Position numbers and translations under genes: made by a program
Shown here: positions 23,901 to 47,911 of the stretch, piece after piece
How the letters are laid out: each line of letters starts with the position of its first letter
Position numbering within the stretch: position 1 is the first letter of the stretch
NCBI GenBank assembly: GCA_049523135.1
Contig: JBEKNE010000001.1
Span: forward strand, 717,234-766,412
Length of the DNA: 49,179 bases
Source of the DNA: Candidatus Microgenomates bacterium
GTDB lineage: Bacteria > Patescibacteriota > Microgenomatia > UBA8517
Direction of reading: 5' to 3'
Notes under the pieces: generated by a model
The model's input: only the letters and a program-made list of their open reading frames with translations
The model's database searches: none
Told to the model about the DNA's origin: nothing

Positions 23901-25072
23901 ATTATTGGGAATCATCAGCAATAGACCCAGCAGGAAGCAATACTTGGGGCAGTTATCAGGCCTCACCCTACTCTTTTACTACAAGCCAGATACCAAATAT
24001 TCCCTCTCTCGATTCACCCGCAAACGGAGCAACCCTGACTTCTACTCCAATTATTCTCAAAACCACAGGAACTGACAATGACAATGATTATTTAATGTAC
24101 AAAATTAGGATTTGCACAGATCAAGCAATGAGTTCCTGCTTGACGGGTTCTCCATTCGATGAAACATCATCTCAAACAGGATGGAGTAATCAAAATGCCA
24201 ACGGCGGTACTGCATATACTTCCAATTCCCCCGATCAACAGGCATGGTACACCCTTCCGTCAAGTGTTCTGTCCCAATTGCAACCCGGCACTATCTACTA
24301 TTGGGATTCATATGCGGAGGATCCGAAAGAATATATCAGTAGTATCTGGACGGCAGGAACCGGTTTATGGGGCAGTACCCAGACCATACCCTATTCATTT
24401 ACCATGGGGCAACCTAATGTTCCATCTGCCCTGCAAGTTGATGGAACTACGGACCCAACTTCCTTAACTGATCAGACTCCCAATTTTACGGCAATCTGCA
24501 ACTCGGGCAACTCCGGTGATACTTTCAATAAATATGAAATTATTGTATCTACCAGTCCAACTTTTAGCTCAACTACCTATGATTCCGGTTCCTCAGGAAC
24601 TTCAATGGCAAGCTGTACCGCAGGTTCAAGATCCTCAAACCTTGCCTATGTTGGAACTCTTGGCCTTGACGGAACAGTATATTATTGGAAAATCAGATTT
24701 TTTGACACGGGAGGATCCGGTACGTGGTCAAACTGGTCAACTGAACTAGCTACTTTTAAAATGTCATCTTCATATGACAACACCCCGTTAACTTGTTCCG
24801 CCGGAACTCTAGGGGCACAAGACTCATCAATTATGGTTCAATGGACCGACTCCGCCGGCGTAACCGCCTTTGAACTCCAAAGAAGTACGGATGGTGGAAA
24901 CACTTTTTCTGATCTTGCCGGTTATTCCGGAAGCGGAACCAACTATACTGATTCGACCACTTCTTCCGGTAATATTTATGAATATAGAGTTAAGGCTACT
25001 TCCGGAGGGGGTTCCGGTTGGTGTACAACAGGACTTGTCAGTTTACAAAGAGGTGTGTTTCAATTCAGATGA
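20939..25072 (+). CDS. Large surface protein A: signal anchor, WapA/RHS-type N-terminal domain, Gly-rich insert, CBM-like domain, FnIII/Ig-like repeats
   Basis: TM at N-terminus; WLADPKRKYPIVID; GGGG-rich block; KYITFWVY...FYFDDI; three ...GTTYYW...AIDP repeats; C-terminal FnIII-like unit. Confidence 0.75.
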   Translation: MLKKFDKQTVFLILGVIILFITGGLFIVYKHLSSTSQPINNTKYIFLDNPTTYKGVLGLSFPINTTIVKSGDIYQNTTNRFKTYFKSSPTLENSITFKNDTSQISFYTPVSQSFGQLQNPTPSVNRNVLTYPNIFPSLDLQYTISSSRLLEEFVVKDKETALKILDINQSVSLTNVDKYTKEPDGSITFYSKGNPTFIIPQPVLYEQENRDIISHGIEYQVTETGKNNLQITKKITQEGADWLADPKRKYPIVIDLVIDNCTNDANTTWISSDTTHTTLSNSSSIYHSPSTGSIQVAVVGSIGTGADGNCIMNNGTKTLDSTVGSSVCNSSSRTTAYAVNFSVTTTASAGATSVTVSSTPNGLLAGDEFLIINLQGTSGNYSSVGQYETHTISSISTNTLNFTDTPLLNTYDGTTQKIMVQRVPNFGNVTICGGNTGGGCTAAATLTTSAWNGTKNGVLFFTSNGTINVNSGGVITANALGYQGGTGKGQVNGIGPQGYSRLPGGSISQSANDGGGGGGQDSSLGAGGSGGGGYGTAGSTGGVGGSGSGPGTGGSAYGSDFPSRLYLGSGAGGAADTGGNGGGIIAVYAVTFTSTGSATSNGGGGHSESNWSGSGGGSGGSISISASSVTAGTITVSGGSGGSGYKGSNGGNGGSGRSTTSPTLPALNDTVTLTEDSTVDLSGVKYITFWVYSGTTGSFAQFQFGQSSSSENTDPFTINVANQWQEVTWDISGLAPTRSAIKYFAFKITSNPNQLTFYFDDIESNTIPVAPTLGPPSNNTQHLLPSSQTLSMNSTDADGDYLMYKVLICTTSDMTTSCLAGSPFDETSSQTGWSNQNYPTGGPYTAYTSGTTAVFTPTLSPGTTYYWEAWAIDPGGTDLWSTVSAKYSFTTNAVPNIPSTPVSPNGVTGQALLPTFTTTTSDPDGDSIKYRIKLCTDNSMGVTGTCYTADQTTTPTGWSNGSSPYSSGTSGVYTLQASLVTLNAGTTYYWESSAIDPAGSNTWGSYQASPYSFTTSQIPNIPSLDSPANGATLTSTPIILKTTGTDNDNDYLMYKIRICTDQAMSSCLTGSPFDETSSQTGWSNQNANGGTAYTSNSPDQQAWYTLPSSVLSQLQPGTIYYWDSYAEDPKEYISSIWTAGTGLWGSTQTIPYSFTMGQPNVPSALQVDGTTDPTSLTDQTPNFTAICNSGNSGDTFNKYEIIVSTSPTFSSTTYDSGSSGTSMASCTAGSRSSNLAYVGTLGLDGTVYYWKIRFFDTGGSGTWSNWSTELATFKMSSSYDNTPLTCSAGTLGAQDSSIMVQWTDSAGVTAFELQRSTDGGNTFSDLAGYSGSGTNYTDSTTSSGNIYEYRVKATSGGGSGWCTTGLVSLQRGVFQFR

Positions 25073-28000
25073 AAAACAAATTTATATATATTGTCGGTTT
25101 GATTGCTATTTCGGCAGTGGTGGTGTTTTTAGGTTTTTTTGCCATTAAAAAGATTATTTCTTCCACTCCTTCAAATTCCGGCAAATATATCTTTTTGGAC
25201 AACCCAACTACTTATAAAGGGGTTTTAGGTCTCTCATTCCCTATTAACACAACTATTGTTAAAAGCGGTGACACATATCAAAATACCACTAACCGTTTTA
25301 AAACTTATTTTAAAAGCGACCCAACCATTAAAGATGGTATTACTTTCAAAAATGACACTTCTCAAATTTCTTTTTACACTCCGGTTAATCAGAGTTTTGG
25401 ACAACTGCAAAGTACAACTCCTCATACCAAAGGCAGTACTATTACTTATTCAAACATTTTTTCTTCACTTGATCTTAGGTACACCGTTTCGCCCACAAGG
25501 CTTCTTGAGGAATTCGTAGTTAATGACAGGCAGACTGCCGAAAAAATTCTTTCCTTAAATCAGGAAGTAACCCTAACTAATGTAGATAATTATGTACAGC
25601 AAGCCGGAAGTATAAACTTTTTCAAAAACGGCAAAATAACCTTTTCTCTCCCCCAACCGGTTCTTTACGAGCAGGAAAACAGGGATATCCGTTCAAATGG
25701 AATTGAATATCAAATTACGGGAAAAGATAAAAATAATCTTGAGGTTACTAAAAAAATTACTCAAGAAGGTGCTGACTGGCTCGCCGACCCGACCCGCCAA
25801 TATCCTATTGTTATAGATCTTGTAATTGACAATGCAGATACTGCAAGTAACTGGGTAAGCTCAGACCCAAGCGGTCTTACGGTTTCCCAGGAAAATTCCA
25901 TCATACACGAAGGCACAGGTTCGGTTAAACTGACAGCCGGAGGTATTAGTACCGGAACGGGAGCTGATGGAAATATTACTGTTGATTCCAGTCACAGCAC
26001 GCCACCAACTTATACTATTAATGCATACAATTATATTACAGGCCGTTCGTGTGCAGACGGCGGTGACGCGGTCAATTATTCCGTTACAGCACTAACTTCA
26101 ACCTCTGCAACAGTTACCGGAGGCGGTGGGACTAATGGAGGACCGGCAACAGGCTGTCTTGCCACAGGAGATGAAATTCTACTCATTAATCTTCAAGGTA
26201 CTTCGACTGCATATACGAACGTGGGCAATTATGAAACGTTAAGAGTATCTTCTATTACTTCCGGAAACATAATCAATTTTACAACCGCAAAAACAAATTA
26301 CTATGGTAACGGAGCAACGGATGATACAAACATTGGCACCAGTTCAAGTAATCAAAGAGTCATGCTCCAAAGAGTCCCAAATTACAACAACGTTACAGTT
26401 AATACGGGGGTCATTTTTTATCCTACTGCATGGAATGGCACAAAAGGAGGTGTCATGGCCTTCAGAGCCAGCGGTACTGTTACTGTTACTGGAACGATAA
26501 GTGCAACAGGTTATGGATATAGAGGTGGTACAGCACCTGCAAGTCATGGTGGACCAGCAGGAGAATCTTTCTGTGGAAACCCGGGAGGAGGGAATGGTGG
26601 TTCTTACGGAGGACCATATGAAGGTGGAAATGGCACATGCGGTGGAGGTGGGGGTGAGTCGACAGGTGGAAACGGCACAATTGCAACAGGTTCAGCGACA
26701 GGAGGGGCGGGAGGTGGAGGCGGAGATGGAGCAGGAAGCACTTATGCCGGAGGAGGAGCAGGAGGCGGCGGAGGATATGGATCCCCCGGAGTACACGGAA
26801 ATGGCGGTAACGTAGTAGCTACTGATGGTTCAACCAACCACAGCGGAAATGGTGGTCTTGCTAGCAATGATGGTGGTGGTGGAGGTGGTGGTGGAAGCTT
26901 TGGATCCACAAATCTATCAACCCTATTTTTAGGTTCCGGAGCTGGTGCCGGGGCGGTTGGTGGCGGCAGCGCGGGCAGAGGAGGAAACGGTGGCGGAATT
27001 ATCCTCATTTTTGCCAATAATTTAAGCGTCACGACAGGTATAACTTCCAATGGAGGCAACGGTGGAAATGGAGGCGGTAGTAGCTCCGCCTTCTTTGGTG
27101 GAGCTGGTGGAGGAGGGTCGGGTGGGTCAATAAAAATTATTGGGAATACTCTTACTATTGGTTCAAGTAAAGTTTCTGCCACCGGCGGTTCAGGTGGAAC
27201 AACTGCAAGCAATAGTGGAGCCGGAGGTGCCGGTGGATCAGGAATTACCGCCATGTTTTATTCATCTCTCTCAGGAAGCACATCTTCACCTACCCCGGCA
27301 TACAATACTTATCCTTATGCCCTCAATGATACAGTCACTTTGACTAAGAGTGTAAATCTCTCCACAGTTAAATATATTACTTTTTGGGTTTACTCAAACC
27401 AAGCAAGTCAGGCAATGAGATTTGAGTTCGGGCAAAGTATAAATTCAGAGCAAACTTATGATTTTACTACCGGTTCGGCAGGTGCATGGCATCAAGTGCA
27501 ATGGGATATTTCGGGTATTAGTACTGGATCCAGAAGTGCTGTCCAATATTTTGCTTTCAAAGTTACAAATATCAGTAATGCCACCACCGTGATTTATTTT
27601 GATGATATTGAGGATAATTCCCCCCCCAATGCTCCCAGTATTGGCCCGCCAGGTAATGCTGCTACCGATCAAATTCTGTCGCCAACATTTACCACAAGTA
27701 CTACGGATGTTGATGGAGATACTGTAAAATATGAGATTGCGATTTGTGCCAACTCCGACATGGTAACCGGCTGTATATCGGGGTCTCCGTTTAGCCAAAC
27801 CTTGTCCCCCACTGGTTGGAGTAATGGCAGTACGCCTTACGCTTCCGGAGCGACAGCAACTTATATACTACAAACAACTCTTAATCCCGGAACTACTTAT
27901 TACTGGCGGTCACAGGCAATTGATCCGGGAGGAAGCGGTATATATGGTGCCTGGAGTTCTACCTATTCTTTCACCACCAGTTATGTACCGGGTGCTCCCA

Positions 28001-29046
28001 CTCTTAATTATCCGAGTAATGGAGCTAATGGTTGGCCACAAGCGCCTGCCGTTTCAATGCATGCAACTGACGCGGACAGTGATTACTTAAGATACCAAGT
28101 TGCAATTTGTACAACATCCGACATGTCAACCTCTTGTATTTCGGGTTCTCCTTTTACGGAGCCCTCAGGTTCACCCCAAACCGGTTGGACCGGGCAGGAT
28201 GCACAGAGTAGTACCGCATATGCTTCCACTCCCAGTTCGGGAACACCATTTGTTTTTTCCCCCACTCTTGCGGCAGGGACCACATACTACTGGCAGGCAA
28301 GGGCAATTGATCCGGGCGGAAGCAATACTTATGGTTCCTGGAGTTCAACTTATACTTTCACCATGGGACAAATAAATGTCCCCTATTCTTTGCAGGTTGA
28401 CGGATCCGTGAATCCACCCGCACTTACTGATCAGACTCCGAACTTTACGGCAATTTGTAGTTCCGCCAATTCCGGCGATACTTTTAATCAATATCAGATC
28501 CAAGTTTCCACTAACCCAAGTTTCAGTTCAACTGTTTACGATTCCGGAGGTGGAGGAACTTCCATGGCCAGTTGTACTGCAGGTTCAAGATCTTCAAACC
28601 TTGCCTATGTTGGCACTCTTGCTCTTGATGGAACAACTTATTATTGGAGGGTAAAACTTTATGATTCAACCTCGGCATCTTGGTCGGGTTGGTCAACCGA
28701 ATTTGCCACCTTTAAAATGAATTCCGCTTATAACGGAACCCCCACCAGCTGCAGACTTATGCAGGCCGCCGATGGAAGTTCCCTTACCCTACTTTGGACT
28801 GATATGACCTCCAATGAAACCGGGTTTGAAATCCAGAAAAATGTAGGTAACACAACTTTTTCACCTCTCATAACAACAGCGGCCAATGTTACAAGTTACT
28901 CCGACCCGACAGCTACGAGTACTACCTACCAATATAGAGTCAGGGCGGATTTTGCTTCCGGAAGCCCGACCGATTGGTGCACAACAACAATAACCAATTT
29001 AACAAAGGGGACATTGCAAATGCAGGGAGTAATCTTAAGTAATTAG
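25069..29046 (+). CDS. Large surface protein B, paralogue of protein A
   Basis: Same architecture; start moved to ATG 25069 (ATGA overlap with stop of A); 44/45 identical residues in the N-terminal block. Confidence 0.78.
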   Translation: MKNKFIYIVGLIAISAVVVFLGFFAIKKIISSTPSNSGKYIFLDNPTTYKGVLGLSFPINTTIVKSGDTYQNTTNRFKTYFKSDPTIKDGITFKNDTSQISFYTPVNQSFGQLQSTTPHTKGSTITYSNIFSSLDLRYTVSPTRLLEEFVVNDRQTAEKILSLNQEVTLTNVDNYVQQAGSINFFKNGKITFSLPQPVLYEQENRDIRSNGIEYQITGKDKNNLEVTKKITQEGADWLADPTRQYPIVIDLVIDNADTASNWVSSDPSGLTVSQENSIIHEGTGSVKLTAGGISTGTGADGNITVDSSHSTPPTYTINAYNYITGRSCADGGDAVNYSVTALTSTSATVTGGGGTNGGPATGCLATGDEILLINLQGTSTAYTNVGNYETLRVSSITSGNIINFTTAKTNYYGNGATDDTNIGTSSSNQRVMLQRVPNYNNVTVNTGVIFYPTAWNGTKGGVMAFRASGTVTVTGTISATGYGYRGGTAPASHGGPAGESFCGNPGGGNGGSYGGPYEGGNGTCGGGGGESTGGNGTIATGSATGGAGGGGGDGAGSTYAGGGAGGGGGYGSPGVHGNGGNVVATDGSTNHSGNGGLASNDGGGGGGGGSFGSTNLSTLFLGSGAGAGAVGGGSAGRGGNGGGIILIFANNLSVTTGITSNGGNGGNGGGSSSAFFGGAGGGGSGGSIKIIGNTLTIGSSKVSATGGSGGTTASNSGAGGAGGSGITAMFYSSLSGSTSSPTPAYNTYPYALNDTVTLTKSVNLSTVKYITFWVYSNQASQAMRFEFGQSINSEQTYDFTTGSAGAWHQVQWDISGISTGSRSAVQYFAFKVTNISNATTVIYFDDIEDNSPPNAPSIGPPGNAATDQILSPTFTTSTTDVDGDTVKYEIAICANSDMVTGCISGSPFSQTLSPTGWSNGSTPYASGATATYILQTTLNPGTTYYWRSQAIDPGGSGIYGAWSSTYSFTTSYVPGAPTLNYPSNGANGWPQAPAVSMHATDADSDYLRYQVAICTTSDMSTSCISGSPFTEPSGSPQTGWTGQDAQSSTAYASTPSSGTPFVFSPTLAAGTTYYWQARAIDPGGSNTYGSWSSTYTFTMGQINVPYSLQVDGSVNPPALTDQTPNFTAICSSANSGDTFNQYQIQVSTNPSFSSTVYDSGGGGTSMASCTAGSRSSNLAYVGTLALDGTTYYWRVKLYDSTSASWSGWSTEFATFKMNSAYNGTPTSCRLMQAADGSSLTLLWTDMTSNETGFEIQKNVGNTTFSPLITTAANVTSYSDPTATSTTYQYRVRADFASGSPTDWCTTTITNLTKGTLQMQGVILSN

Positions 29047-31091: not shown

Positions 31092-31162
31092 GGGCCGTTA
31101 GTACAGTGGTAATACATCGCATTCGCATTGCGAAGACGGGAGTTCGATTCCCCCACGGTCCA
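31092..31162 (+). tRNA. tRNA-Ala(CGC)
   Basis: Acceptor GGGCCGT/ACGGTCC with G3:U70 Ala identity pair, anticodon loop TT-CGC-AT, discriminator A. Confidence 0.93.
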
Positions 31163-31256
31163 CTTTTTAGTTTTGGCTCGGCACAAAATACCAAAACTTT
31201 GAGGCTAAAATTCTAAAATCATTCACGTCTAAACTCTTGTAATGTCTATCAGATGC

Positions 31257-31514
31257 CTAGCTTAAACCTTCATGAATAAATTGTTTAATAAGTGTTTGGT
31301 ATGGAACATCATTCTGGTGAGCTTTAATTTTCACTCTATCGAGAAGGGACTCCGGCATCCTTATTGTAATCGGAACCGAAGATAACTTTAAGTTCGGAAA
31401 GACCCATTTTTCAGCTTTGGAGTAATCCACATATTCAGTAGAATCAACTCTTTGCCAGAATTTTCGTTCTTCTGCCTCACTCTCAAATTTAGGAATTCTT
31501 TTTAGCTTTTTCAT
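31257..31514 (-). CDS. BrnA/CopG-like antitoxin
   Basis: IPKFESEAEERKFW...DSTEYVD...ITIRMPESLLDRVK..A....VPYQTLIK; GAGGAGG SD 9 nt before ATG 31514. Confidence 0.85.
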   Translation of the reverse strand: MKKLKRIPKFESEAEERKFWQRVDSTEYVDYSKAEKWVFPNLKLSSVPITIRMPESLLDRVKIKAHQNDVPYQTLIKQFIHEGLS

Positions 31515-31794
31515 ATTTTTCAACCTCCTCTCTATGCATCCTTCTTGCAGATATAATTCGAATCTTTTTACCTCTCATCGTAAAAACTACAAATAAATTT
31601 CTCTTTGACTGACTCTTGCCTAAAATTATAAATCTCTCTTCCTTTTGTGAATATTTTACATCGGTAATGACATATGATTCTTCACTTATAAATACTTCCT
31701 CTGCTTCTTTGGTTGTAATACCATGTTTGAGATAACTCTTGTCTAAATTTTCTCTATCCCATTCAAATTCAATTACCTCACGCTTAATCTGCAT
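31489..31794 (-). CDS. BrnT-family toxin
   Basis: FEWDRENLDKSYLKHGIT...EERFIILG...VVFTMRGKKIRIISARRM; start ATG 31794. Confidence 0.9.
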   Translation of the reverse strand: MQIKREVIEFEWDRENLDKSYLKHGITTKEAEEVFISEESYVITDVKYSQKEERFIILGKSQSKRNLFVVFTMRGKKIRIISARRMHREEVEKYEKAKKNS

Positions 31795-31830
31795 TGTACA
31801 TATGATATATGTACAAATTTTATTTGTCAA
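31794..31830 (-). promoter_or_regulatory. brnTA promoter TTGACA-N17-TATCAT overlapped by a 10-3-10 inverted-repeat operator
   Basis: TTGACA 31830-31825, TATCAT 31807-31802; IR TTGTACATAT (31794-31803) / ATATGTACAA (31807-31816). Confidence 0.8.
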
Positions 31831-31899: not shown

Positions 31900-33006
31900 C
31901 TATTTCAAATAATCCAGAGGGTTAACATGAACTCCGTTTAGAATGATTTCAAAGTGAGTGTGAGGCCCTGTAGAGTGTCCCGTAGATCCCATTCTGCCGA
32001 TTACCTGTCCCTTGGCAACAGTTTGCCCGACCACAACCATAATTTGGCTTAAGTGAGCATAGAGAGTCTTATAACCGTTGCCGTGATCAATCATTACCAT
32101 ATTTCCGTATCCTGTCGTGTCCCAGCCGGCGTGGACAACCGTTCCTGAATCGGCTGCAACATCCAGTGGCTCTGCCGGGTTGGCAATATCGATAGCAGGA
32201 TGATACCAACTGAAGTACTGGGTAATAATTCCCTGTGTGGGCCAGACAAACTGCCCTGAGGCGGTAACTGATCCGGCACCTGGCGTCATTTGTCTCGGTC
32301 TTGGAGTGGCGGCAATACCTGTCGGCATAACTCCATCAGGAACTATTACCGTTTCTCCAATCGCAAGCTCAAAAGTTTCATCATTGGTGAAAGTATTAAA
32401 AGGAAAATCAACTATAGCCTGAGCTTCTGCATCATACTTACTAGCAATAGAATAAACCGTATCACCTTTGGCAACCGTATGGGCAACACCCGTTACCGGC
32501 AATATTTTAAGATCCTGCCCGACCTTTATTTTGTCCCCCGAAAGGTTGTTTGCCCAGCGAATTGTGTCGGCGGATATTCCGAATTTATTGGCAATTGAAG
32601 CCACCGTATCGCCATCCTGAACTTGATAATCAATTATACTGTCTCTGACTTTATCCGATATTTGCGTATCTATGCTGGAACTATCGGTCGCAGCCGAAAG
32701 AACCGACGGAGCGGCTGAAATTTCCCACGGGTTTACGGAATTTCCGGGAAATTGCTGGGCAATCAGAGGAGCCATCATAATTCCGAGTGCCGCAATTGCG
32801 GCCATGCCGGAATGGGAAAGGGTTCTGGAAAGCTTTCCGCGTTTTCTGTAAAGAGCAGTAACAACCAATCCTTTTCTTTCTTCAAGTTTCAAGAAACTAA
32901 GGTGAAGGCTTTTAAAAGTAAAATTAATAAGTTCAATAAAAAAAATCTTTATATCCTGCCAAAGTTCAGTTAATGCCTCAAAAGTTTCGTCCATGCAAGA
33001 GTACAT
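31900..33006 (-). CDS. LysM x2 + M23 peptidase
   Basis: YQVQDGDTVASIA and HTVAKGDTVYSIA LysM units; HPAIDI, YAHLS, GHSTGPHTHF M23 motifs. Confidence 0.93.
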   Translation of the reverse strand: MYSCMDETFEALTELWQDIKIFFIELINFTFKSLHLSFLKLEERKGLVVTALYRKRGKLSRTLSHSGMAAIAALGIMMAPLIAQQFPGNSVNPWEISAAPSVLSAATDSSSIDTQISDKVRDSIIDYQVQDGDTVASIANKFGISADTIRWANNLSGDKIKVGQDLKILPVTGVAHTVAKGDTVYSIASKYDAEAQAIVDFPFNTFTNDETFELAIGETVIVPDGVMPTGIAATPRPRQMTPGAGSVTASGQFVWPTQGIITQYFSWYHPAIDIANPAEPLDVAADSGTVVHAGWDTTGYGNMVMIDHGNGYKTLYAHLSQIMVVVGQTVAKGQVIGRMGSTGHSTGPHTHFEIILNGVHVNPLDYLK

Positions 33007-33080: not shown

Positions 33081-33818
33081 TTACCAAAGCTTATAGATAA
33101 CGGTAACGACTTTTGTTACATTAAATACTCCACTCTGAGTACTGCCCTGGGCTTGGGCAGAAGTTGCACTTGTACCGCTAGTTGATGTGGCAGAAGAGGT
33201 GGTTGAGGACTCTGACACAGAAACAATTTTTCTAATAAGCTTCCAGTTCCTTAACGCAATCTTGGAAATCTGTGAATTTGCATCATCAATTGCCAGATTC
33301 ATCGCCTGAACTTCAAGAGTCTCTTGATTATCAACCGAAAGAACCGGCTGTGAGACTACATAAACTCCGTTTGAATACAATGTTGAAATTAGATCATTAA
33401 TCCCGGAAACTCCCGGCATCTTAACTTCCATCGTAATTGAAGCTTGAAATCCCGTTGCACCGGTAGTAATTAAATTCGCAGGAACTACAGTGACCTGCGA
33501 GCTGGAAATATTTTCTGCAACTATTCCCCTACCGATAAGAAGCTGTTTAATTGCATCCGCTTTTGCCTGTACTCCGGAAATTGCTCCTTGCACAGCAGGA
33601 TCGGATGAGGTTACGGAAAAATCAATTGTTGCATTTGAAGCCGTAACACTCACATTCCCAGTCCCGGTAACGCTTACAAGCATCGGAGAGGAAAGATATG
33701 TCCAAAAAACCATTAAAAGAACAATCCCCAGAACAATTAAAAGCTTTTTCTTTAATCCTGAAGAAACTTTTGGCTCTTCAGGACCGTAATTGGCAGTAAA
33801 GGCAGGTTGAGGATCCAT
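33081..33818 (-). CDS. SIMPL (DUF541) domain membrane-anchored protein
   Basis: TM then VSVTGTGNVSV..SNATIDFSV, AMNLAIDDA, VVTVIYKL. Confidence 0.78.
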   Translation of the reverse strand: MDPQPAFTANYGPEEPKVSSGLKKKLLIVLGIVLLMVFWTYLSSPMLVSVTGTGNVSVTASNATIDFSVTSSDPAVQGAISGVQAKADAIKQLLIGRGIVAENISSSQVTVVPANLITTGATGFQASITMEVKMPGVSGINDLISTLYSNGVYVVSQPVLSVDNQETLEVQAMNLAIDDANSQISKIALRNWKLIRKIVSVSESSTTSSATSTSGTSATSAQAQGSTQSGVFNVTKVVTVIYKLW

Positions 33819-33917: not shown

Positions 33918-36900
33918 ATGCCCAAGTTCAAAAAATACGAAAGAGGCTTTACTACTAGTTCCCTAAGCCTGATGGCTATTGGATTTCTAACTCTCTCCCT
34001 TGTTGCGGTAACTGTCGTAATAAACAATCAGAATTTCTTCATAAATCTTTTTTCCCACGCGGCAACAAAATGTAGCAGCAGTCAAGTTTATTGTGCAGGA
34101 TGTGGAGGTTTTTGCTTGGACGATACTTCTAAAGTCGGCTGCAATGTGGCTCAAGAGCAAAAGTGTGGCCAACAGGCGCAATACGGTTCAACGGTTGCAC
34201 AGGTGGTTGCCTGCCCGGGTAAAACTCAGTGTACTTGCAATGGAAGTACTGTCTGTTTTAACACAACCGGTTCTTGTACGGCAAGTGATGGTCTCTGTGC
34301 ACTTGTAAAAAGCACCGGCAACTCTTCAAGCAGTAATAGTAGCAATACTCAAACAGGATCAAGTTCCGTTTCCGGATGTATTGGTGAAGGCGGAACCGTG
34401 GCAAACGGCAGTTCACCCTGCTGCAGCGGCTTGGTACAAGCAAATTGTGTAGCAAATGGTTCTTTTTCTTACTGTATCTGTACTAATCCAAATAATGTAC
34501 CCGCACCATCTCCAACCGAAACTTGTACCGTCAGAAATTGCTCAGGCACTACTTGTGCATCAACAACAACTACTGTTTCATCAAATCAGGCTTGTCCCCC
34601 ATCAAGTTGTGCAAACGATAACGACTGCAAGAATTCAACAACATCATCATCAACTACTACTATCAACAGCGGCTCCAACAACTCTTCCACGGCCTATTGT
34701 AATGTCTCTACCCAAAATCTCGGGTGTGGAGAAGCAGGTTGTGCCAAAACCGAGATGGCACAAATCACCACAAAAGTTGATTGTACAAAAGTAACAACTT
34801 GTACTCAAAATATAAATTGCGGTGCTGTATTCAAAGCACAATGTACAAGCGGCAAAACACAATGTAATAGTAGTACCAATCTTCAAACCTGCGTAAACGG
34901 AATGTGGACTATTGGCGAGTACTGTCAATATGGATGTTCCAATTCAGCCTGCAATAAGCAAGCAAGCCAAGTAGTAGCTCAGACACAAAATCAAACTTCT
35001 ACTCAACAATCAACAACGCAAAATCCGGTAACTGCAACCACGACTCTAAAAGCAAACGGTCAGTCCTGTACTTCAAACACCGAATGTCAATCCGGACGTT
35101 GCATGACTTATAACGAACTGGCAAGCCAAGGCCCGCAAAGTCCATTAAGCCCCGGACGGGTCTGCCTTTCACCTCAAGATGAAACCAGTTTAGCAAAACT
35201 AACAAGCACAGAAACAAAAGCTGCTGTGGGAGTGACAGCGGTAGCACTTGCTGTTGGCGCACCGATGGCGATTCAAGGTTTAAGCGGAGCGGCAACTCTG
35301 GGAACGATAATAATGTCCCAGCTCCCAACATGGGTAGCTCCGGCTACGCTCCTTGCCGGCACTGCTCCGGCAGTATATTCCCTGACCAAATGCTCGATTA
35401 ATCCTGACAATTGTACAGATACGGATAAACTGAATATGTTCTTAACGGGATGGGGAATTCAACAAATATATGAAACCGGTGCTTCGGCAGGCTTAACTCA
35501 AAAGAGTGTAGCACCCGCTGCCGCCGGAGCAGTTGAAGAAACGGGAGTAAACACGGCCGCTGATCAAATATTATCTGATGATTTGGCATCCGCAAATATT
35601 ACAGCCCCCGAGTCCGTATCTGCACAAAATATTGTAGAAAAAACTTCCGTAAAAATCGGAAGTGATGGCCAGCTTTTAATTCCCGATGAAGTATCAACAC
35701 CTAATGTAGACCTTGTTTCCCTCCAACAGGGAGCCGCCGGATTAAATGAACCTGAAGCGATACCAAATAGCGGCTGGACGGAAAACTCAATATTACAAGC
35801 TAAAAATTTAAACGCTACAGGAGTGGAAAACGAGGCTATTCCCAAAAATGACTGGGTAGATAATGCAATATTGCAATATAAAAAATCTCTACTTGTGGCA
35901 CAAAATCCAATTTCGATTAGTGAAGGAATTACCGAAGAGGCCACCATTCCCGTCACCCAAACCGCCGGTGAAGCTCTTTCCGAAGCTCCGGCTGCAGGTG
36001 AGGCTGTAGCACCTGTTGCTCAAGAATCTGAACCAATACCGGCAGACTTAACCCAAGTAACCACAATGCCGGACGGCGAACCTTTTGTTTCAGCTGAGGA
36101 AGCATATCAAGCAGAATCCTCCCCCGCTCTAGCAAGAAGAATAACGGATATTGAAAACCAAGTTTCGAATCTTGATGCCGAAAAGGTAGCGCAAATAATT
36201 TATGATGCCAAATATACAGACGGTTTGACTGGGCTTGTGAACAGAACCGGCTTCACAGAAGGGCTAGATCTTGAAATTGCAGATGCGACAAAAAACAGCT
36301 CGGATTTGACAATCATAACTATGGATTTAAATAAGTTTAAATCAATTAATGACGAATTCGGACATTTAACAGGTGATGATGCGCTTGTAACAGTTGCAAA
36401 CCTGCTCAAAGATAATACCAGATCAACCGATTTGGTTGTGCGGGTATCGGGAGATGAGTTTGCTCTCATCCTCCCCCAAACCAATGAAGAACAAGCCCAA
36501 ATTGTGTTGCAAAAAATACAAAGTGCTTTAGATGCTCAAAAAGCGGCGGCTGATGCGGATAGCTATATACAAAAGATAAACATAGATGCAGGTATCAAGC
36601 AATGGTCCCAAGATGACAATATCGACGATTACCTTAAAGACTTAGATAGGACAATGTATGATCAAAAAAGAGGAATTTCCAACGAAAACCAACCAGTCCA
36701 GACACAGGTTACAGAAAATGTATCCAACAACAATCAAGTAGGCCAAACAACATCAAAATCCCTAGCACAAAGAGTGACAGATGGTATTAAAGGAACCTTT
36801 CAAAATATTACATTAAACTTTAGTAATTCTCTAAATTTCTCCGAAGCAGAGGATAATACTTGGAACATACTAACAGGTTCAACTCCAGACAATTCTATTT

Positions 36901-37463
36901 CCACCCAAGAGGTAGATCAAGTCGCTGCTGATACAAATAAGCCAAGTAACAATTTACTTTCTTGGTTTAACGATAAAATTATTAATCCTATCCAAGATAA
37001 AATATTAAGTCCACCTGTTGAAGGAACTCTTACAGATCCAGGAAATCTCAAAAACCAAGACTTAGTAAATGCATGGCGAAGACCAGTAGAAAACAATATG
37101 GATCCAAAAATGAACTATCCAATACAATATCTTGAAACAAAAGCCAATAGACTAGAAGGAGTAGCATTTGATCCTTCAGGGGTTAAGATGTTGGGTAAAC
37201 AAACATATGCAGGAAGACAGATCTTGGAACTTAATCTACCCACAGGTGATGATATCCTAATGTACCGGTCAACCGGTACAAATACACATCAATTAAAACA
37301 GGAGGGTGATTGGATCCCAATAGCCGGATTTGCAAAAAATGACTGGTTTATAAAAACACGAGACGTGATTAATCTTGTAAAGAATGAAGGATCGACTTAT
37401 TTAACAAATCTTTCAAACTATCTTAGCGCTAATGAGGGTATGTATTTTAGCGATTTTAAATAA
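33918..37463 (+). CDS. Multidomain protein: prepilin-like leader/TM, Cys-rich region, hydrophobic segment, GGDEF domain, unknown C-terminal domain
   Basis: MPKFKKYERG-FTT + TM; dense Cys clusters; TDGLTGLVNR, MDLNKFKSINDEFGHLTGD, RSTD-LVVRV-SGDEF. Start moved to ATG 33918. Confidence 0.85.
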   Translation: MPKFKKYERGFTTSSLSLMAIGFLTLSLVAVTVVINNQNFFINLFSHAATKCSSSQVYCAGCGGFCLDDTSKVGCNVAQEQKCGQQAQYGSTVAQVVACPGKTQCTCNGSTVCFNTTGSCTASDGLCALVKSTGNSSSSNSSNTQTGSSSVSGCIGEGGTVANGSSPCCSGLVQANCVANGSFSYCICTNPNNVPAPSPTETCTVRNCSGTTCASTTTTVSSNQACPPSSCANDNDCKNSTTSSSTTTINSGSNNSSTAYCNVSTQNLGCGEAGCAKTEMAQITTKVDCTKVTTCTQNINCGAVFKAQCTSGKTQCNSSTNLQTCVNGMWTIGEYCQYGCSNSACNKQASQVVAQTQNQTSTQQSTTQNPVTATTTLKANGQSCTSNTECQSGRCMTYNELASQGPQSPLSPGRVCLSPQDETSLAKLTSTETKAAVGVTAVALAVGAPMAIQGLSGAATLGTIIMSQLPTWVAPATLLAGTAPAVYSLTKCSINPDNCTDTDKLNMFLTGWGIQQIYETGASAGLTQKSVAPAAAGAVEETGVNTAADQILSDDLASANITAPESVSAQNIVEKTSVKIGSDGQLLIPDEVSTPNVDLVSLQQGAAGLNEPEAIPNSGWTENSILQAKNLNATGVENEAIPKNDWVDNAILQYKKSLLVAQNPISISEGITEEATIPVTQTAGEALSEAPAAGEAVAPVAQESEPIPADLTQVTTMPDGEPFVSAEEAYQAESSPALARRITDIENQVSNLDAEKVAQIIYDAKYTDGLTGLVNRTGFTEGLDLEIADATKNSSDLTIITMDLNKFKSINDEFGHLTGDDALVTVANLLKDNTRSTDLVVRVSGDEFALILPQTNEEQAQIVLQKIQSALDAQKAAADADSYIQKINIDAGIKQWSQDDNIDDYLKDLDRTMYDQKRGISNENQPVQTQVTENVSNNNQVGQTTSKSLAQRVTDGIKGTFQNITLNFSNSLNFSEAEDNTWNILTGSTPDNSISTQEVDQVAADTNKPSNNLLSWFNDKIINPIQDKILSPPVEGTLTDPGNLKNQDLVNAWRRPVENNMDPKMNYPIQYLETKANRLEGVAFDPSGVKMLGKQTYAGRQILELNLPTGDDILMYRSTGTNTHQLKQEGDWIPIAGFAKNDWFIKTRDVINLVKNEGSTYLTNLSNYLSANEGMYFSDFK

Positions 37464-37465: not shown

Positions 37466-38785
37466 TTATGCAGTCTTGAGGGTGTCCAAAAACTCATCAT
37501 TAGTTTCAGTTTTAGCAAGTCTATCAATAAGAGTCAGAGTCTTCTCGTCATCATTCATTAAATCAATCATCCTTCTTAAAGTATTAACTTTCCTCAATTT
37601 TTCCATTCCAAAAAGAAGTTCGTCCTGCCTGGTTCCGCTTTTTTCAATATCAATTGCCGGGAAAATTCTCTTATCTGAAAGTTTTCTATCAAGGTGAAGT
37701 TCCATATTTCCGGTTCCCTTGAATTCCTCATAAATTAGATCGTCCATTCGGCTCCCCGTATCCACCAAGCATGTTCCGATAATGGTTAGGGATCCCCCGC
37801 CTTCAATATTTCTGGCTGCGCCAAAGAATTTCTTGGCAGGGAAAAGAGCCATCGGGTCAAATCCTCCGGAAAGTGTACGACCTGAAGTAGGAAGGGCCAA
37901 ATTGTAGGCTCTAGCCATTCTGGTAATGGAATCAAGGACAATTACAACATGATTTCCCATTTCGACAAGACGACGAGCACGCTCGAGAGCCAATTCTCCC
38001 ACTCTGGTTTGATCCTGCGGAGCTTCATCAAAATTGCTGGCGGCAACTTCCCCCATCTTATCGCTGACAGTATCCATGGTTCTAATAATATCGGTAACCT
38101 CTTCAGGGCGCTCCCCGATAAGAACCGCCATAACATGAACTTTTCTATTCTTTCCTTTACCTTTTTCAGGATAATTGCCAGCAATTCCTTTAATAATATC
38201 TTTTACAAGCCAGGTTTTACCGGCTTTGGGCGGAGAAACGATTAATGCCCTTTGTCCAAAACCAATTGGGGCGATCAAATCTATCATTCGGGTAGTTAAT
38301 GTATCTTTGTCTGTCGAAAGGATAATCTGTGCATCAGGGTAAACTGCGATCATATCGTCGAAATTTGGCCTTGCACCAACTGACTCAACAGGTTCACCGT
38401 TAATTTTTTCAACCTTCAAAAGTCCCCAATATCTCTCATTTTCTTTTGGACGACGCGCCTGGCCGCCAATCATATCCCCCACGCGAAGGTTGAATCTTCT
38501 AATTTGGGATGCCGAAATATAAACATCGTGGTCGCTTGGAGCAAATCTTTGAGGCCGGAGCAGTCCGCTCCCCTCATTGGCAATATCAAGTACCCCCTCT
38601 ACATAGTCCGTAGGAAGCCCCGCGTCAGGGATCATCCTGTCATCAACCACCAATGTTCCTTGGGGCTTTTCCTCAATTGTTACGGGAGCCGGAGGAAGGT
38701 TTCCTGCATCAACCGGGAAACCGATCAAATCGGATAAATCAGCTTTCTGGGTAGGTTCTTTTGTGGTAACAGACTTTCTAGGCAT
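37466..38785 (-). CDS. rho: Transcription termination factor Rho
   Basis: DVYISASQIRRFNLR, GFGQRALIVSPPKAGKT, LIGERPEEVTD, LDSITRMARAYN, EEFKGTGNMELHL. Confidence 0.97.
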   Translation of the reverse strand: MPRKSVTTKEPTQKADLSDLIGFPVDAGNLPPAPVTIEEKPQGTLVVDDRMIPDAGLPTDYVEGVLDIANEGSGLLRPQRFAPSDHDVYISASQIRRFNLRVGDMIGGQARRPKENERYWGLLKVEKINGEPVESVGARPNFDDMIAVYPDAQIILSTDKDTLTTRMIDLIAPIGFGQRALIVSPPKAGKTWLVKDIIKGIAGNYPEKGKGKNRKVHVMAVLIGERPEEVTDIIRTMDTVSDKMGEVAASNFDEAPQDQTRVGELALERARRLVEMGNHVVIVLDSITRMARAYNLALPTSGRTLSGGFDPMALFPAKKFFGAARNIEGGGSLTIIGTCLVDTGSRMDDLIYEEFKGTGNMELHLDRKLSDKRIFPAIDIEKSGTRQDELLFGMEKLRKVNTLRRMIDLMNDDEKTLTLIDRLAKTETNDEFLDTLKTA

Positions 38786-39503: not shown

Positions 39504-40244
39504 CTAATTATCTGTCTCGCCCGTTGGTGTTACATCAGAAACTGTTCCTAACGGTCTGGCCACAACGATAAGCCTGTTCCAAGAAGTTCCCGGCGGATCG
39601 CAGGTTTGCAAGATAAGTCTTTCCCCGCTTCCGTCATCAGTTAGCCAGGATGTATCGGAAGCCGAAGTCACAAATTTATCCGTAACCACATAGTCGTACT
39701 CCTGATTCATAAAATAGATAACTACCCTGTCCCCTTTTTCAAGTTTTCCGAGTAGATAAAAAACAGCATTATAGCGGGTAATATTTATCGGAGAATCTGT
39801 CGAATGGGAGAATAAATATATTGTTTTACCCCGCCCGGGGAAATTTGTACCCTTGGCATGTGCCACCCCCTCGGAAAGGGCCTTCAAATAATCGGTTGGG
39901 TTACCGGGATCAACATTTGGAATTATGTTTGCTTTGGCGTCAATTTTAGGAATAAAAATAGAAAAATAGGGGTCAAGACCAAGCTCCTCGGCCTGAGACT
40001 TACCGATTGTCTCTGTAAACTTACTGAAATCTTCCTGTTGCTTTGAGCCAAATCTGTACAAAAATTCCTCCTTGGCTATTGGCCAGAAACTGAAAAGTAT
40101 TCCAAGGAAGGCAAAAGCGACAAGCCCCGCGCCGAATGTCCGGAGAAAATGATAACTCAATTTCTTTATTAACGGTGGCCGAAGGGAAACTTCCCGAGAA
40201 GAATTTTCTTTTCCCGACTGATAAATTATACCGTGCGGATACAT
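39504..40244 (-). CDS. Sortase
   Basis: TM anchor; IFIPKID, GVAHAKGT..PG, LFSHS, LILQTCDPPGTSWNRLIVVA (His, TLxTC-like, Arg). Confidence 0.9.
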   Translation of the reverse strand: MYPHGIIYQSGKENSSREVSLRPPLIKKLSYHFLRTFGAGLVAFAFLGILFSFWPIAKEEFLYRFGSKQQEDFSKFTETIGKSQAEELGLDPYFSIFIPKIDAKANIIPNVDPGNPTDYLKALSEGVAHAKGTNFPGRGKTIYLFSHSTDSPINITRYNAVFYLLGKLEKGDRVVIYFMNQEYDYVVTDKFVTSASDTSWLTDDGSGERLILQTCDPPGTSWNRLIVVARPLGTVSDVTPTGETDN

Positions 40245-40252: not shown

Positions 40253-41227
40253 CTAAACCAACTCAAATTTTTTGAAGAGATAAAATCCTATACCCATTAT
40301 TCCGGAAAGGCTGGCTATTAAACCAAGTGTGTCGGAACCTGTCTTTGGCAAATTGGGAGGAGCCGACGCACCAAGAACCTGAGGAGGTGTGGGGGTCGGG
40401 GTTGAAGTAGATCCACAGCCGCAACCGGAATCATCCGGACAGCTTGGATTTCTGCAGTAGCCATTGTAGCAGAAGTATCCACCCTGACAATTGTAATTAC
40501 TGCCGCAGGTTCCGTTACACCAATTTGGTGTGGTGGTGGGTGTCTCGGTTGGCGTGCAGGTCGGAGTAGGAGTCGGTGTTTCCGTCGGCGTAGCAGTAGG
40601 AGTAGCTGTTGGGGTTACTGTAGACGTAGGCGTAGGTGTGGGTGTGGGAGTGGGTGTTTGAGACGGTGTAGGTGTCGGATTTGATTTTCCACAACTGGAA
40701 TCCGGAGTGCAGGACTTCTCCCTGTATTCACAAGTTGTATTGCTTATGCAGTACGGGTAAGTATCACAAAAGTGATTGGCAGAACACCTATTCCCTGTCT
40801 GAGAGGCAGGAATTCCCTGGCAAGAAGAGTTTGAATAACCTTTATCTCCGTGGTAGATTGTGCATCTTTCCCAAACTCCACCTATTTGCTCACAATCTGT
40901 TGTTGTATTATCCGGAATACAGGAATCTGTTGACGTTCCGCCACCATTAGAGCCTGTGCAATCCACATAATGATCAATTTTCCAGCCGTACTCCGAACAA
41001 CTTGAATCATTTGTCGCTACACACTTGGCAACCCAACACTGACTGACACCGTTAACATTCTTTGTGGCTCCGTCGGAAGTACAAACATCAGGGCAATAAG
41101 AAGGATATGTGGAGGCTTTGGATATGCCTACTTTGAAATAACCGCTTAATTTACTGGCAAAAATAATTAAAACAAATAAAGATACTGTGAAGATAAACAA
41201 ACCCGCTTTTAGAAACTTAATTTTCAT
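40253..41227 (-). CDS. Cys-rich secreted protein with Pro-Thr linker and LPXTG sorting signal
   Basis: Signal peptide MKIKFLKAGLFIF (ATG 41227); Cys clusters; (PT)n; LPKTG + hydrophobic stretch + KK tail. Confidence 0.85.
   Translation of the reverse strand: MKIKFLKAGLFIFTVSLFVLIIFASKLSGYFKVGISKASTYPSYCPDVCTSDGATKNVNGVSQCWVAKCVATNDSSCSEYGWKIDHYVDCTGSNGGGTSTDSCIPDNTTTDCEQIGGVWERCTIYHGDKGYSNSSCQGIPASQTGNRCSANHFCDTYPYCISNTTCEYREKSCTPDSSCGKSNPTPTPSQTPTPTPTPTPTSTVTPTATPTATPTETPTPTPTCTPTETPTTTPNWCNGTCGSNYNCQGGYFCYNGYCRNPSCPDDSGCGCGSTSTPTPTPPQVLGASAPPNLPKTGSDTLGLIASLSGIMGIGFYLFKKFELV
40528..40680 (-). repeat. Pro-Thr low-complexity linker
   Basis: PTPTPSQTPTPTPTPTPTSTVTPTATPTATPTETPTPTPTCTPTETPTTTP. 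Confidence 0.9.
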
Positions 41228-41290
41228 CAAATTCTCGGCGGCAGAACCTGACTGCAGGATATAGTAATAAAAAAAACTTGTCAACTGACG

Positions 41291-41383
41291 AAAAAAAACG
41301 CGCCCACTTCTAAACTCAAGGAGCGGGTAGATCCCCTGCCCTAGAATCCACCCGTCCCTCAAATCTAGAAATAAAGCGCGTTT
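41291..41383 (-). ncRNA. Long imperfect hairpin followed by a U-run (terminator or small RNA)
   Basis: AAACGCGC/GCGCGTTT outer stem and a 10-bp inner stem whose mismatches are G:U only on the minus strand; 8-T run. Confidence 0.45.
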
Positions 41384-41429
41384 CTCAAAGGGGCTTGACA
41401 ATGCCCTTTAATCGTTTTAGTCTGATTAC

Positions 41430-43116: not shown

Positions 43117-43240
43117 AGCTACTGATACACTGAAAAATAGATACAGTCAACCGCCTTTTTGGTTCGAATTTTCCCCTATCTGATATAATACGCCAGCGTG
43201 TTTGTTCTTTGACATAATTATAAAAATCTCTCGGGAAAGG

Positions 43241-44356
43241 ATGCGTCAAATGATCAAAAAATTCTTTGGAAGGACAAACCACCCCGTAATCACTCTATTG
43301 CTGTTGGTGTTTGTGGTGGTATTACTGTACTGGGATAGTTCCAATATCAGCAAGATAATATCTTATGACTTGAATAACCGGTCTGTGCAACCCCCCGCAC
43401 TTCCAACTGCAATTCCTCTGACAGGGACACCGTTTGACTATTGTGTAGTTAATAAAGATACGGGGCTGTCTTATCAAGCCAATGCAGGAACTCCTGTTGC
43501 AGCATCTCCCGTGCCTTTCAACACCCCTGTTCCGGAAACATTGGAAACTGTAAGTGCCACTACTTTAGCCGAACAGTCCGCCCAATCGGCAGAAGCTACA
43601 ACTTTACCCTCGCCAACTGAAAACACCACTTCCATTCTTACATTTAATCCGGATGTGGTAAACGTCGATCAATTTAAAGCGGATAACTTCCATGTTATAT
43701 TTATTGGAGTTGGCTTCGATAAGGAAACAAACCAAGAGATATTGGAAAACACCATCAAGGAGGTACAACTGGGGTTTAGCGGCATCAGGATTGATTTCGC
43801 TTATGTCAAAAATCCACTGACAATCAAATTGTCCCACGTAGCTCAAATGGCCGATTTTGACAACATTATCGATTTCATAACCCTAACTGCCAAGATCAAA
43901 TCTGTTCATCCGACTGACGGTATAATCCTGCTTCTGAACACTGACGAGTACATAGGCGACACAGGGATAAATTCCTCTGGTACAGATTATGCATTCGTAT
44001 CCGGAAATGATCCCTATGTTATATTTTCCACAACCCACGAGATTGGGCACCAGTTGGGCCTTGGAGATGGATATAACCAATACCTCGCCGATCAGATTCC
44101 GAACAGTGAATTATTCTACGCCGACAGCATGCCAGATTTTTTGGCAAGATCTCTAGATGAACTTGGATACATACCACCTCTTTACGAGGCAGGTACTTGC
44201 AACAGCAAGAAGATTTATACCTTTTACGAAAGTAGCAACAACATAATGGGGAATTACAACCCGCAAGGTCCAAGCTCATGGGGAGATTCCGTTTTTACAC
44301 CGCTGCAAATCCAGATCATGAATGATCACGTTAAACAATTGAAAGGGGGGAATTAG
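43241..44356 (+). CDS. Membrane-anchored metzincin-type zinc peptidase (M64-like)
   Basis: TM, Pro/Thr linker, HEIGHQLGLGD (HExxHxxGxxD), NIMG Met-turn; start 43241 or 43250. Confidence 0.75.
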   Translation: MRQMIKKFFGRTNHPVITLLLLVFVVVLLYWDSSNISKIISYDLNNRSVQPPALPTAIPLTGTPFDYCVVNKDTGLSYQANAGTPVAASPVPFNTPVPETLETVSATTLAEQSAQSAEATTLPSPTENTTSILTFNPDVVNVDQFKADNFHVIFIGVGFDKETNQEILENTIKEVQLGFSGIRIDFAYVKNPLTIKLSHVAQMADFDNIIDFITLTAKIKSVHPTDGIILLLNTDEYIGDTGINSSGTDYAFVSGNDPYVIFSTTHEIGHQLGLGDGYNQYLADQIPNSELFYADSMPDFLARSLDELGYIPPLYEAGTCNSKKIYTFYESSNNIMGNYNPQGPSSWGDSVFTPLQIQIMNDHVKQLKGGN

Positions 44357-47582: not shown

Positions 47583-47700
47583 TTCTGGCGGTGACATATT
47601 TTCGCGGTCAGTTGCCCGACAACTATCGTCTGCGCTAAAGCGTTTTACTTCTGTGTTCGGAATGGGAACAGGTAGTGCCACTTCGCACTAACCACCAGAA
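47583..47700 (-). rRNA. rrf: 5S rRNA
   Basis: TTCTGGTGG/CCGCCAGAA terminal helix, CCCATTCCGAACAC signature. Confidence 0.93.

Positions 47701-47876: not shown

Positions 47877-47911
<35 letters not shown>

Follow-up and report, generated by a model that had tools for sequence, protein, structure and literature searches.

Polymorphic toxins such as CdiA, Rhs and MafB, as reportedly set out by Zhang, Aravind and colleagues in 2012, have a conserved N-terminal trafficking or presentation region, exchanged C-terminal enzyme domains and a hydrophobic or 'pre-toxin' region before the cargo. Other described toxins include MARTX and the large clostridial toxins, the nucleotide-cyclase toxins ExoY, CyaA and edema factor, and the (p)ppApp-synthetase effector Tas1. 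Multi-enzyme polypeptides are also known from the injected polyvalent proteins of phages and conjugative elements, where GGDEF is explicitly listed among the domains (Iyer et al., 2017, PMC5512222), and from giant multi-domain proteins of the Omnitrophota, called a predatory Patescibacterial branch by the Lipocone preprint (10.1101/2025.01.14.632903). Here we describe a gene of a Candidatus Microgenomates bacterium (contig JBEKNE010000001.1) that joins an N-terminal membrane anchor and a Cys-rich region to a GGDEF domain, the domain of diguanylate cyclases that synthesize cyclic diguanosine monophosphate (c-di-GMP). It lies at positions 33918-37463 (+ strand) of a stretch of 49,179 nucleotides that was analyzed as a whole and that we refer to as the window. 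Little is known of how bacteria of the Candidate Phyla Radiation (CPR, or Patescibacteria) manipulate their hosts, and, to our knowledge, an effector-delivery system has yet to be defined in them.

The gene is best read as a member of a family of modular surface proteins, anchored at the N-terminus and specific to the Woesebacteria/Microgenomates lineage, that would be built like a polymorphic or multi-effector toxin. The parts of the target protein, numbered in nucleotides of the window and in amino acids (aa), are as follows, with relatives named by handles (P0002 and the like) that are used throughout.

33918-37463, + strand: whole gene, from ATG at 33918 to TAA at 37461-37463, 1181 aa by the open reading frame (ORF) list and translation
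33918-33956, + strand: basic N-terminus bearing the leader motif of the family, MPKFKKYERGFTT (aa 1-13), with four Lys/Arg
33957-34025, + strand: N-terminal transmembrane (TM) anchor or signal (aa 14-36), Kyte-Doolittle 2.42
34071-35165, + strand: Cys-rich ectodomain (aa 52-416), with 40 of the 42 Cys of the protein
34377-34628, + strand: conserved sub-module CIGEGG..CC.GL..CV..GSFSYC.C..CTVRNC (aa 154-237), duplicated in P0002
35055-35123, + strand: motif NG.SCTS..EC.SG.CMTY.ELA (aa 380-402) just N-terminal of the hydrophobic stretch, conserved in the target and P0002
35220-35384, + strand: uncharged Ala/Gly/Thr/Pro-rich hydrophobic stretch (aa 435-489, 55 residues), Kyte-Doolittle maximum 1.74
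35391-35414, + strand: Cys loop C492-x6-C499 (CSINPDNC), a C-x-N-P...C loop directly after the stretch
35415-36119, + strand: acidic Pro/Glu/Ala-rich low-complexity linker (aa 500-734), matching no Pfam family
36120-36212, + strand: segment before GGDEF (aa 735-765), a possible helix or dimerisation stalk
36213-36674, + strand: GGDEF diguanylate-cyclase domain (aa 766-919)
36420-36431, + strand: I-site RSTD (aa 835-838)
36447-36461, + strand: active-site motif SGDEF (aa 844-848)
36675-37037, + strand: Asn/Gln/Ser/Thr-rich spacer (aa 920-1040)
37038-37460, + strand: C-terminal tail domain (aa 1041-1181), core at about aa 1085-1175, GR..Y.S.G..G.W..I.GF..WFIK

The features listed in a first-pass annotation of the window were all recovered in place by ORF translation, Pfam and composition, and the leader-linker-tip layout that it had proposed is borne out by the succession of anchor, Cys-rich part, Ala/Gly stretch, acidic linker, GGDEF and tail.

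Relatives were collected by a leader scan of 80 fetched rho-centred loci together with a search with the tail. Word-indexed searches were nearly blind to the family: the full-length query returned only itself and P0002, the tail returned nothing and an alignment of the N-terminal module returned only P0002. A GTDB genome scan with this module likewise found nothing, and a metagenome scan found only a duplicate of L027. Seven other leader-bearing proteins (P0002, L027/L082, L002, P0026, L008, L004 and L037) were obtained, six of which also have the Ala/Gly stretch. P0002 has the leader, Cys-rich module, CMTY motif and Ala/Gly stretch of the target, followed by an unrelated C-terminal domain with HEGGH; the CMTY core is found in L027 too. 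L027/L082 (757 aa) carries a Cys-His-Asp transglutaminase-like domain, L002 (435 aa) has the leader and a C39-like peptidase with no second hydrophobic stretch, and P0026 (3039 aa) has a GDSL lipase and a C39_2 domain according to Pfam. In L008 (1392 aa; 12664-16842, - strand) residues 985-1052 match the Shigella effector kinase OspG (PDB 4q5e, E=3e-6) with a Pfam kinase score of 23.5 bits that is under the cut-off, and L004 (2468 aa; 9370-16776, - strand) has the kinase-type glycine loop GQGGYGSIYYA. The L008 and L004 modules are examples of effector-style kinases in CPR surface proteins. The remaining leader-bearing member, L037, has 1516 aa. HExxH motifs occur in P0002, L008, L004 and P0026, with the caveat that the zincin (Metallopep) and transglutaminase (Transglut_core) assignments are sub-threshold (E=0.011 and 0.036, respectively) and that the similarity of the P0002 C-terminus to the P0026 zincin is only suggestive (E=0.75).

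Across the family the leader and TM anchor are conserved, as is a core of uncharged Ala/Gly-rich stretch and small Cys loop, while the disulfide-type ectodomain varies and a flexible linker leads to the exchangeable enzymes. The GGDEF cargo was seen in the target only among these eight members. The question raised by the first-pass annotation, whether homologues swap their C-terminal domains, is thus answered with a yes, as zincin-like, transglutaminase-like, C39-like, lipase and kinase domains replace GGDEF at the same locus, and we are highly confident both of the family membership and of the cargo swapping. A literature search found no description of the leader/cargo family, of its link to the SIMPL protein encoded beside it (see below) or of the tail domain, and within the scope of that search the family is previously undescribed. 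The locus is a testable candidate that has a conserved carrier, swappable enzyme cargo and a fixed chromosomal address in Woesebacteria, and its cargo set includes a cyclase and a kinase, two enzymes that need cytoplasm.

Relative to the systems introduced above there are likenesses as well as important differences. As in polymorphic toxins, the family has a conserved N-terminal region, unrelated C-terminal enzymes swapped at one locus and a hydrophobic region before the cargo. Unlike in polymorphic toxins, no cognate immunity gene lies directly downstream of the target (where rho follows), P0002 or L027 (where SIMPL follows convergently); P0026 alone has a small downstream ORF. In addition, no TPS, PAAR, LXG or RHS domain was found in Pfam scans, which leaves the N-terminal anchor as the only delivery-related feature seen. 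The cargo may also be a string of several enzymes, and the constant neighbour is SIMPL with no cargo-specific partner. The family resembles the polyvalent and Omnitrophota giant proteins in having unrelated enzymes on one polypeptide (zincin, papain-like peptidase, kinase-type or nucleotide-signal enzymes), and the tail domain of the target is common to phage-type proteins. It differs from polyvalent proteins in being chromosomal, in a conserved housekeeping neighbourhood, with an N-terminal anchor and Cys-rich ectodomain and with no virion packaging. MARTX and large clostridial toxins similarly combine a receptor-binding part, a moderately hydrophobic translocation region and effector modules with, as in some members here, a cysteine peptidase that possibly frees the cargo, and ExoY, CyaA, edema factor and Tas1 are, as is proposed here, nucleotide-messenger synthases for another cell. 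The family departs from these toxins in having no RTX or CROP repeats, no sequence similarity, a reversed module order, presumed bacterial targets, an entirely hypothetical delivery route and a retained I-site. Finally, the DgcN/YfiN/TpbB sensor cyclases share with the target an N-terminal TM segment and an extracytoplasmic domain, then another hydrophobic segment and, at the C-terminus, a GGDEF domain with I-site. The target differs from them by its lack of HAMP and PAS domains, its 270-aa acidic linker, a weak Pro-containing 'TM2' with reversed charge bias and an extra C-terminal domain, and its relatives carry hydrolases in place of GGDEF.

The GGDEF domain looks catalytically intact, with all catalytic and I-site residues present in the sequence. 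It matches Pfam PF00990 (E=2.2e-39) and TIGR00254 (E=4e-36) with scores that exceed the curated cut-offs (135.3 vs 23.8 bits and 124.2 vs 37.4 bits, respectively), and it matched 53 PDB cyclases, WspR and 52 others. When aligned to WspR, SGDEF falls on GGEEF, RSTD falls on RSSD and the metal- and guanine-binding positions D803, N811 and D820 are kept. A Ser at the first position of the GG(D/E)EF motif is a variant that is active in some enzymes. The I-site precedes SGDEF by five residues (LVVRV), and the first-pass description of an intact-looking diguanylate cyclase with an RxxD I-site at canonical spacing therefore stands. The sole deviation is at the domain end, in the C-terminal phosphate-binding motif, which reads 'KRG' in place of the consensus 'KxxGR'. 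A partial NCBIfam match to DgcN/YfiN-type membrane cyclases (E=9e-32) is far under the equivalog cut-off.

The way in which this domain is attached argues against one of the two roles proposed by the first-pass annotation, that of a contact-sensing cyclase. No HAMP, PAS or S-helix was found in the target and no Pfam domain at aa 490-765; there is a short predicted helix directly before GGDEF, where aa 735-765 align with the stalks of PleD- and WspR-type cyclases. Between the hydrophobic stretch and GGDEF lie about 270 residues of acidic, low-complexity sequence (39 Asp/Glu vs 11 Lys/Arg at aa 500-760), and a linker of this length makes rigid transmembrane signalling or allostery implausible. 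A contact-sensing cyclase in the usual sense is thus unlikely. The linker also contains a 19-aa imperfect tandem repeat, EPEAIPNSGWTENSILQAK (aa 611-629, 35748-35804) and ENEAIPKNDWVDNAILQYK (aa 637-655, 35826-35882). Other GGDEF domains, EAL, HD-GYP, PilZ and MshEN domains and c-di-GMP riboswitches were all absent from the 49-kb window.

We next considered on which side of the membrane the cargo resides. In L002 the leader is followed by the C39-like domain with no further hydrophobic segment, which must place this domain beyond the membrane. P0026 has a homologous C39 domain (E=9e-13) at its extreme C-terminus, some 2,400 residues past its own Ala/Gly stretch. The Cys residues provide additional evidence. 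In the seven members with the stretch, 36 of the 40 Cys downstream of it have a partner within 12 residues, whereas shuffled sequences average 6.8 and peak at 19 (0/5000 reach 36); the four unpaired ones are the GCGP Cys of two C39-like domains, which we read as catalytic, and one pair that is 31 residues apart. P0026 has 7 Cys in 2544 residues vs 20.7 expected at the frequency of the window's cytoplasmic proteins (P=5e-4), and in those cytoplasmic proteins Cys are either single and scattered or part of CxxC zinc clusters, unlike the paired Cys of the cargo. Cys that are paired and otherwise depleted are what one expects of disulfide loops exposed to an oxidising compartment. The only Cys of the target outside aa 52-416 are C492 and C499; the C-x-N-P...C loop that they form stands right behind the stretch in the target, P0002 and L027, with a similar pair farther downstream in the other members.

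The Ala/Gly stretch itself is a candidate membrane-insertion element or weak second TM segment. Its equivalents in the seven members are 47-96 aa long and Pro-containing, with Kyte-Doolittle peaks from less than 1.6 (L004) up to 2.17 (L027) and values of 1.7-2.2 in four members. On a biological insertion scale with approximate values, the summed energy of the stretch is +4.9 to +6.7 and positive in all three members computed, and that of the N-terminal anchor, a similar segment being present in all relatives, is negative. Over the seven members, 16 Lys/Arg fall in the 20 residues before the stretch and 6 in the 20 residues after it, which is the opposite of the positive-inside expectation for a second TM segment that runs from outside to inside. 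Lipase and peptidase cargo, Pro/Thr/Glu-rich linkers and the peptidoglycan-linked relatives of the tail also fit an envelope or extracellular setting. Taken together, these features lead us to lean towards an extracytoplasmic location of the cargo.

If the cargo is indeed outside, then the GGDEF module may be an intact-looking c-di-GMP synthase that acts outside the producer's cytoplasm. In the scheme that we propose, Sec would insert the protein through its N-terminal anchor and everything downstream of the anchor, cargo included, would be outside the cytoplasmic membrane. The Cys-rich part would be a stalk or adhesin, and the marginally hydrophobic Ala/Gly stretch would enter a membrane in the manner of viral fusion peptides or the translocation regions of toxins, with the Ala/Gly core and Cys loop forming a conserved delivery or insertion element. 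The cyclase-tail cassette would be the cargo, and the GTP-dependent cyclase would work only once in the cytoplasm of another cell, presumably that of the episymbiont's host, where c-di-GMP would be raised. Our reading of the protein as a modular exoprotein akin to polymorphic toxins, with a cyclase active in or on a partner cell, is tentative, and we put its chances a little short of even; granted export, action inside the partner cell would be likely. Delivery into a host, which the first-pass annotation had also raised, is something that we purely infer. The most elaborate version has a CPR episymbiont use an AB-toxin-like carrier (anchor, adhesin, fusion-peptide-like segment and tether) to deliver a working cyclase into its host and push it into a sessile matrix-producing state favourable to the epibiont, with sister genomes loading the carrier with kinases, peptidases or lipases and with SIMPL taking part in export or assembly, and this we consider unlikely. 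If cargo export is true, a bacterial second-messenger synthase would be used between cells, and we know of no described case of such use of a c-di-GMP synthase.

The most serious rival is a membrane-tethered cytoplasmic cyclase, a live if doubtful possibility in which the Ala/Gly stretch is TM2, the Cys-rich part alone is outside and c-di-GMP is made in the Woesebacterium's own cytoplasm. Its output could control attachment, pili or the envelope, and the relatives could be receptor-like proteins with kinase or peptidase cytoplasmic outputs. Much of what speaks for this arrangement weighs directly against export. A TM-ectodomain-TM-GGDEF protein with a cytoplasmic cyclase is a very common layout, indeed the commonest cyclase architecture; GGDEF and kinase domains are also classic outputs of receptor-type membrane proteins; and GTP- and ATP-dependent cargo need the cytoplasm, where alone these nucleotides are available. 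The best NCBIfam models include the DgcN/YfiN type, and plain Kyte-Doolittle values (1.74 in the target and 2.17 in L027) let the first part of the stretch be a second TM segment in four members, with the insertion energies that say otherwise depending on the approximate scale. The Cys depletion of the target itself is weak (2 vs 5.6 expected, P=0.08). The I-site, which mediates product inhibition, is as intact as the catalytic residues, and this is unexpected for an enzyme that floods a victim with product. Furthermore, the target has no immunity gene beside it, neither secretion nor translocation machinery was recognised and a host is not known. Diguanylate cyclases have moreover been reported in metagenome-assembled genomes (MAGs) of Patescibacteria, attached ones included, and read there as ordinary signalling genes (PMC9938205). 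What argues against the tethered arrangement is that Lys/Arg are not enriched after the stretch, that tight Cys pairs lie downstream of it in all seven members, that the L004 stretch is under 1.6 and that a 270-aa acidic linker stands where a HAMP or S-helix contiguous with the putative TM2 would be. Lipase and C39 cargo are likewise downstream of the stretch, with the same C39 type unambiguously outside in L002, and the tail domain co-occurs with a peptidoglycan-binding domain. Should the cyclase prove to be cytoplasmic, the family itself, the SIMPL link and a well-folding domain of about 100 aa shared with phage proteins would still be new.

The same evidence for export (C39 homology and Cys pairing) is compatible with a surface-displayed protein that is no cyclase, in which the exported GGDEF would bind a nucleotide or other ligand, have a structural part, or do nothing as a newly captured cassette, and the tail would bind envelope polymers. 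The link of the tail to PG_binding_1 and lytic-transglycosylase proteins, the restriction of GGDEF to the target among the eight members and the 'KRG' domain end fit this explanation, which is improbable given that catalytic, metal-, guanine-binding and I-site residues are all kept and that the protein is identical or one residue different on five contigs and thus shows no visible decay. A modular type IV pilin or pseudopilin, with a prepilin peptidase cutting the leader at G|F and a pilus displaying the cyclase, follows from the 'pilin-like' label of the first-pass annotation. This label rested on 'RG|F' before a hydrophobic helix, which is indeed seen in the target, P0002, L027 and L002. The motif common to all eight members is 'MP x5-9 G [FRKV] x [DT] x L [SN] L .. 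GFL', and the position that follows its conserved Gly is occupied by F in those four, by R in P0026, by K in both L004 and L008, and by V in L037. N_methyl (PF07963) has no Pfam match in the target even at E<=1, and a Glu at +5 is found in none of the eight members, where this position is S or L. Pilin assembly would also hardly accommodate cargo of up to about 2,500 aa or the second hydrophobic stretch. With the leader profile and the family variation already contradicting it, the pilin explanation is scarcely credible and was rejected; the leader is better described as a putative lineage-specific signal-anchor with conserved juxtamembrane sequence. Sortase anchoring of the target was rejected as well, as its C-terminus (...NEGMYFSDFK) has no LPxTG, hydrophobic segment and basic tail. 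A Pfam Toxin_29 match (E=0.008) was dismissed as noise from the Cys pattern.

In regards to the tail, the model indicates that it is a real, confidently folding domain of about 100 aa. Its last 100 or so residues gave 83 HMMER matches among 1.84 billion representatives, and an AlphaFold2 model from an alignment of 29 homologues reached a predicted local distance difference test score (pLDDT) of 92.9 and a predicted template-modelling score (pTM) of 0.87. There is no match to it in Pfam, PHROGs, PDB sequences (profile search) or PDB folds (Foldseek best E=0.23), in agreement with the earlier proposal of a distinct C-terminal domain of unknown kind. Weak BFVD matches (E about 0.01, TM-score 0.36-0.46) to Caudovirales proteins of 1233-1434 aa, one with a lytic-transglycosylase domain, are a hint only, and a tblastn search of GenBank phages with P0010, a homologue of the tail, had no matches. 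Most tail homologues have 150-700 aa, and one comes from a phage-like contig (locus L085/L086) on which numerous small ORFs share one strand. In four, PG_binding_1 forms the C-terminus and nothing hydrophobic separates it from the tail domain, and the family member P0026 holds the tail domain internally. Homologues outside CPR (P0011, P0018, P0041 and P0063) are small and many begin 'MKK.I.LTESDL..II'; some non-CPR homologues have moderately hydrophobic Gly/Ala-rich segments upstream and PG_binding_1 downstream. Two functional assignments were rejected: 'YRSTG' as the R-S-E signature of an ADP-ribosyltransferase, where the alignment has no conserved Glu, and PilZ, where there is no RxxxR or DxSxxG motif.

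The spacer before the tail contains the motif WFNDKIINPIQDKILS (aa 1016-1031, 36963-37010), which is common to the target, P0026 (at about aa 958 and 1418) and L008 (at about aa 703). Its consensus is W[WF][DN]xK[IV][IV]xP[IV]xx[DN]xI[FL] and it adjoins the tail domain in the target and P0026, so that it may mark a module junction or processing site.

The genomic neighbourhood of the target consists of the following genes.

31900-33006, - strand: LysM and M23 peptidase gene (Pfam), a conserved flank of the locus in 74 fetched loci
33081-33818, - strand: divergent neighbour coding for a membrane-anchored SIMPL (DUF541) protein, Pfam E=1.3e-18
37466-38785, - strand: rho, convergent, with a stop codon that starts 2 nt past the stop of the target

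The convergent rho end, 2 nt away, agrees with the first-pass observation that no immunity gene follows the target. All members are beside or near M23/LysM, and all but L002 are also by SIMPL in an M23/LysM-SIMPL-rho block. SIMPL occurs in eight fetched loci, two of which are duplicates, and a leader-bearing member is beside or near it in seven; the L018 SIMPL locus has only a large ORF, the start and leader of which are not resolved. SIMPL is 39-48% identical across loci (window, L001, L004, L008, L027/L082, L037 and L084) irrespective of the cargo. This conservation suggests a constant accessory role for SIMPL and speaks against an immunity protein. Rho is 87% identical to that of the closed Candidatus Woesebacteria chromosome OY970314.1, and its best matches are all from Woesebacteria/Microgenomates MAGs, which places the source organism, an ultra-small CPR bacterium, among the Candidatus Woesebacteria.

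An in-frame TTG lies upstream of the target gene at 33882; the 1181-aa public gene call P0092 and the leaders of the relatives begin 'MP'. The P0092 protein, identical or with one residue different, is found on five public contigs from several samples, one of which is 780 kb, indicating that the gene is not an assembly artefact. Several public annotations (P0001 and P0095-P0097) instead have a 1115-aa call that starts at an internal non-ATG codon (L/MDDTSK...). These calls drop the leader and anchor, and automated annotation would therefore overlook the signal-anchor of the cyclase. No promoter or terminator signals above background were found around the gene.

Several other features of the window were recorded. 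Between a Wzy/TPR gene and M23, at 31092-31830, there is a tRNA gene (31092-31162, + strand) and a BrnT/BrnA-type toxin-antitoxin pair (31257-31830, - strand). In relatives this spot holds other insertions, an AAA ATPase in L082 and, in L002, the leader-C39 gene, which suggests a variable region. Three consecutive very large ORFs of 2410, 1377 and 1342 aa occupy 13184-29046 (+ strand). The first has no Pfam match, the 1377- and 1342-aa ORFs are paralogues that both have an Ig_Rha78A_N domain and are almost identical in their N-terminal regions, and upstream of all three is a small ORF with two integrase SAM-like N-terminal domains and no catalytic domain. A sortase gene (39504-40244, - strand) is directly downstream of a gene for a 382-aa Cys-rich Pro/Thr-linker protein (40253-41401, - strand), which ends in LPKTG, a hydrophobic segment and a basic tail and is therefore a likely sortase substrate; its linker style resembles that of the L002 ectodomain. 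At 47583-49179 (- strand) are the 5S rRNA and the 3' part of the 23S rRNA, the latter split by a group I intron (48741-49007) that has a LAGLIDADG endonuclease ORF (48109-48624) next to it, a combination that is common in CPR bacteria. Finally, the ORF at 43202-44356 (+ strand) codes for 384 aa with an N-terminal TM segment, a HEIGH motif and a weak Peptidase_M64 match (E=4e-4), and is probably a secreted zinc peptidase.

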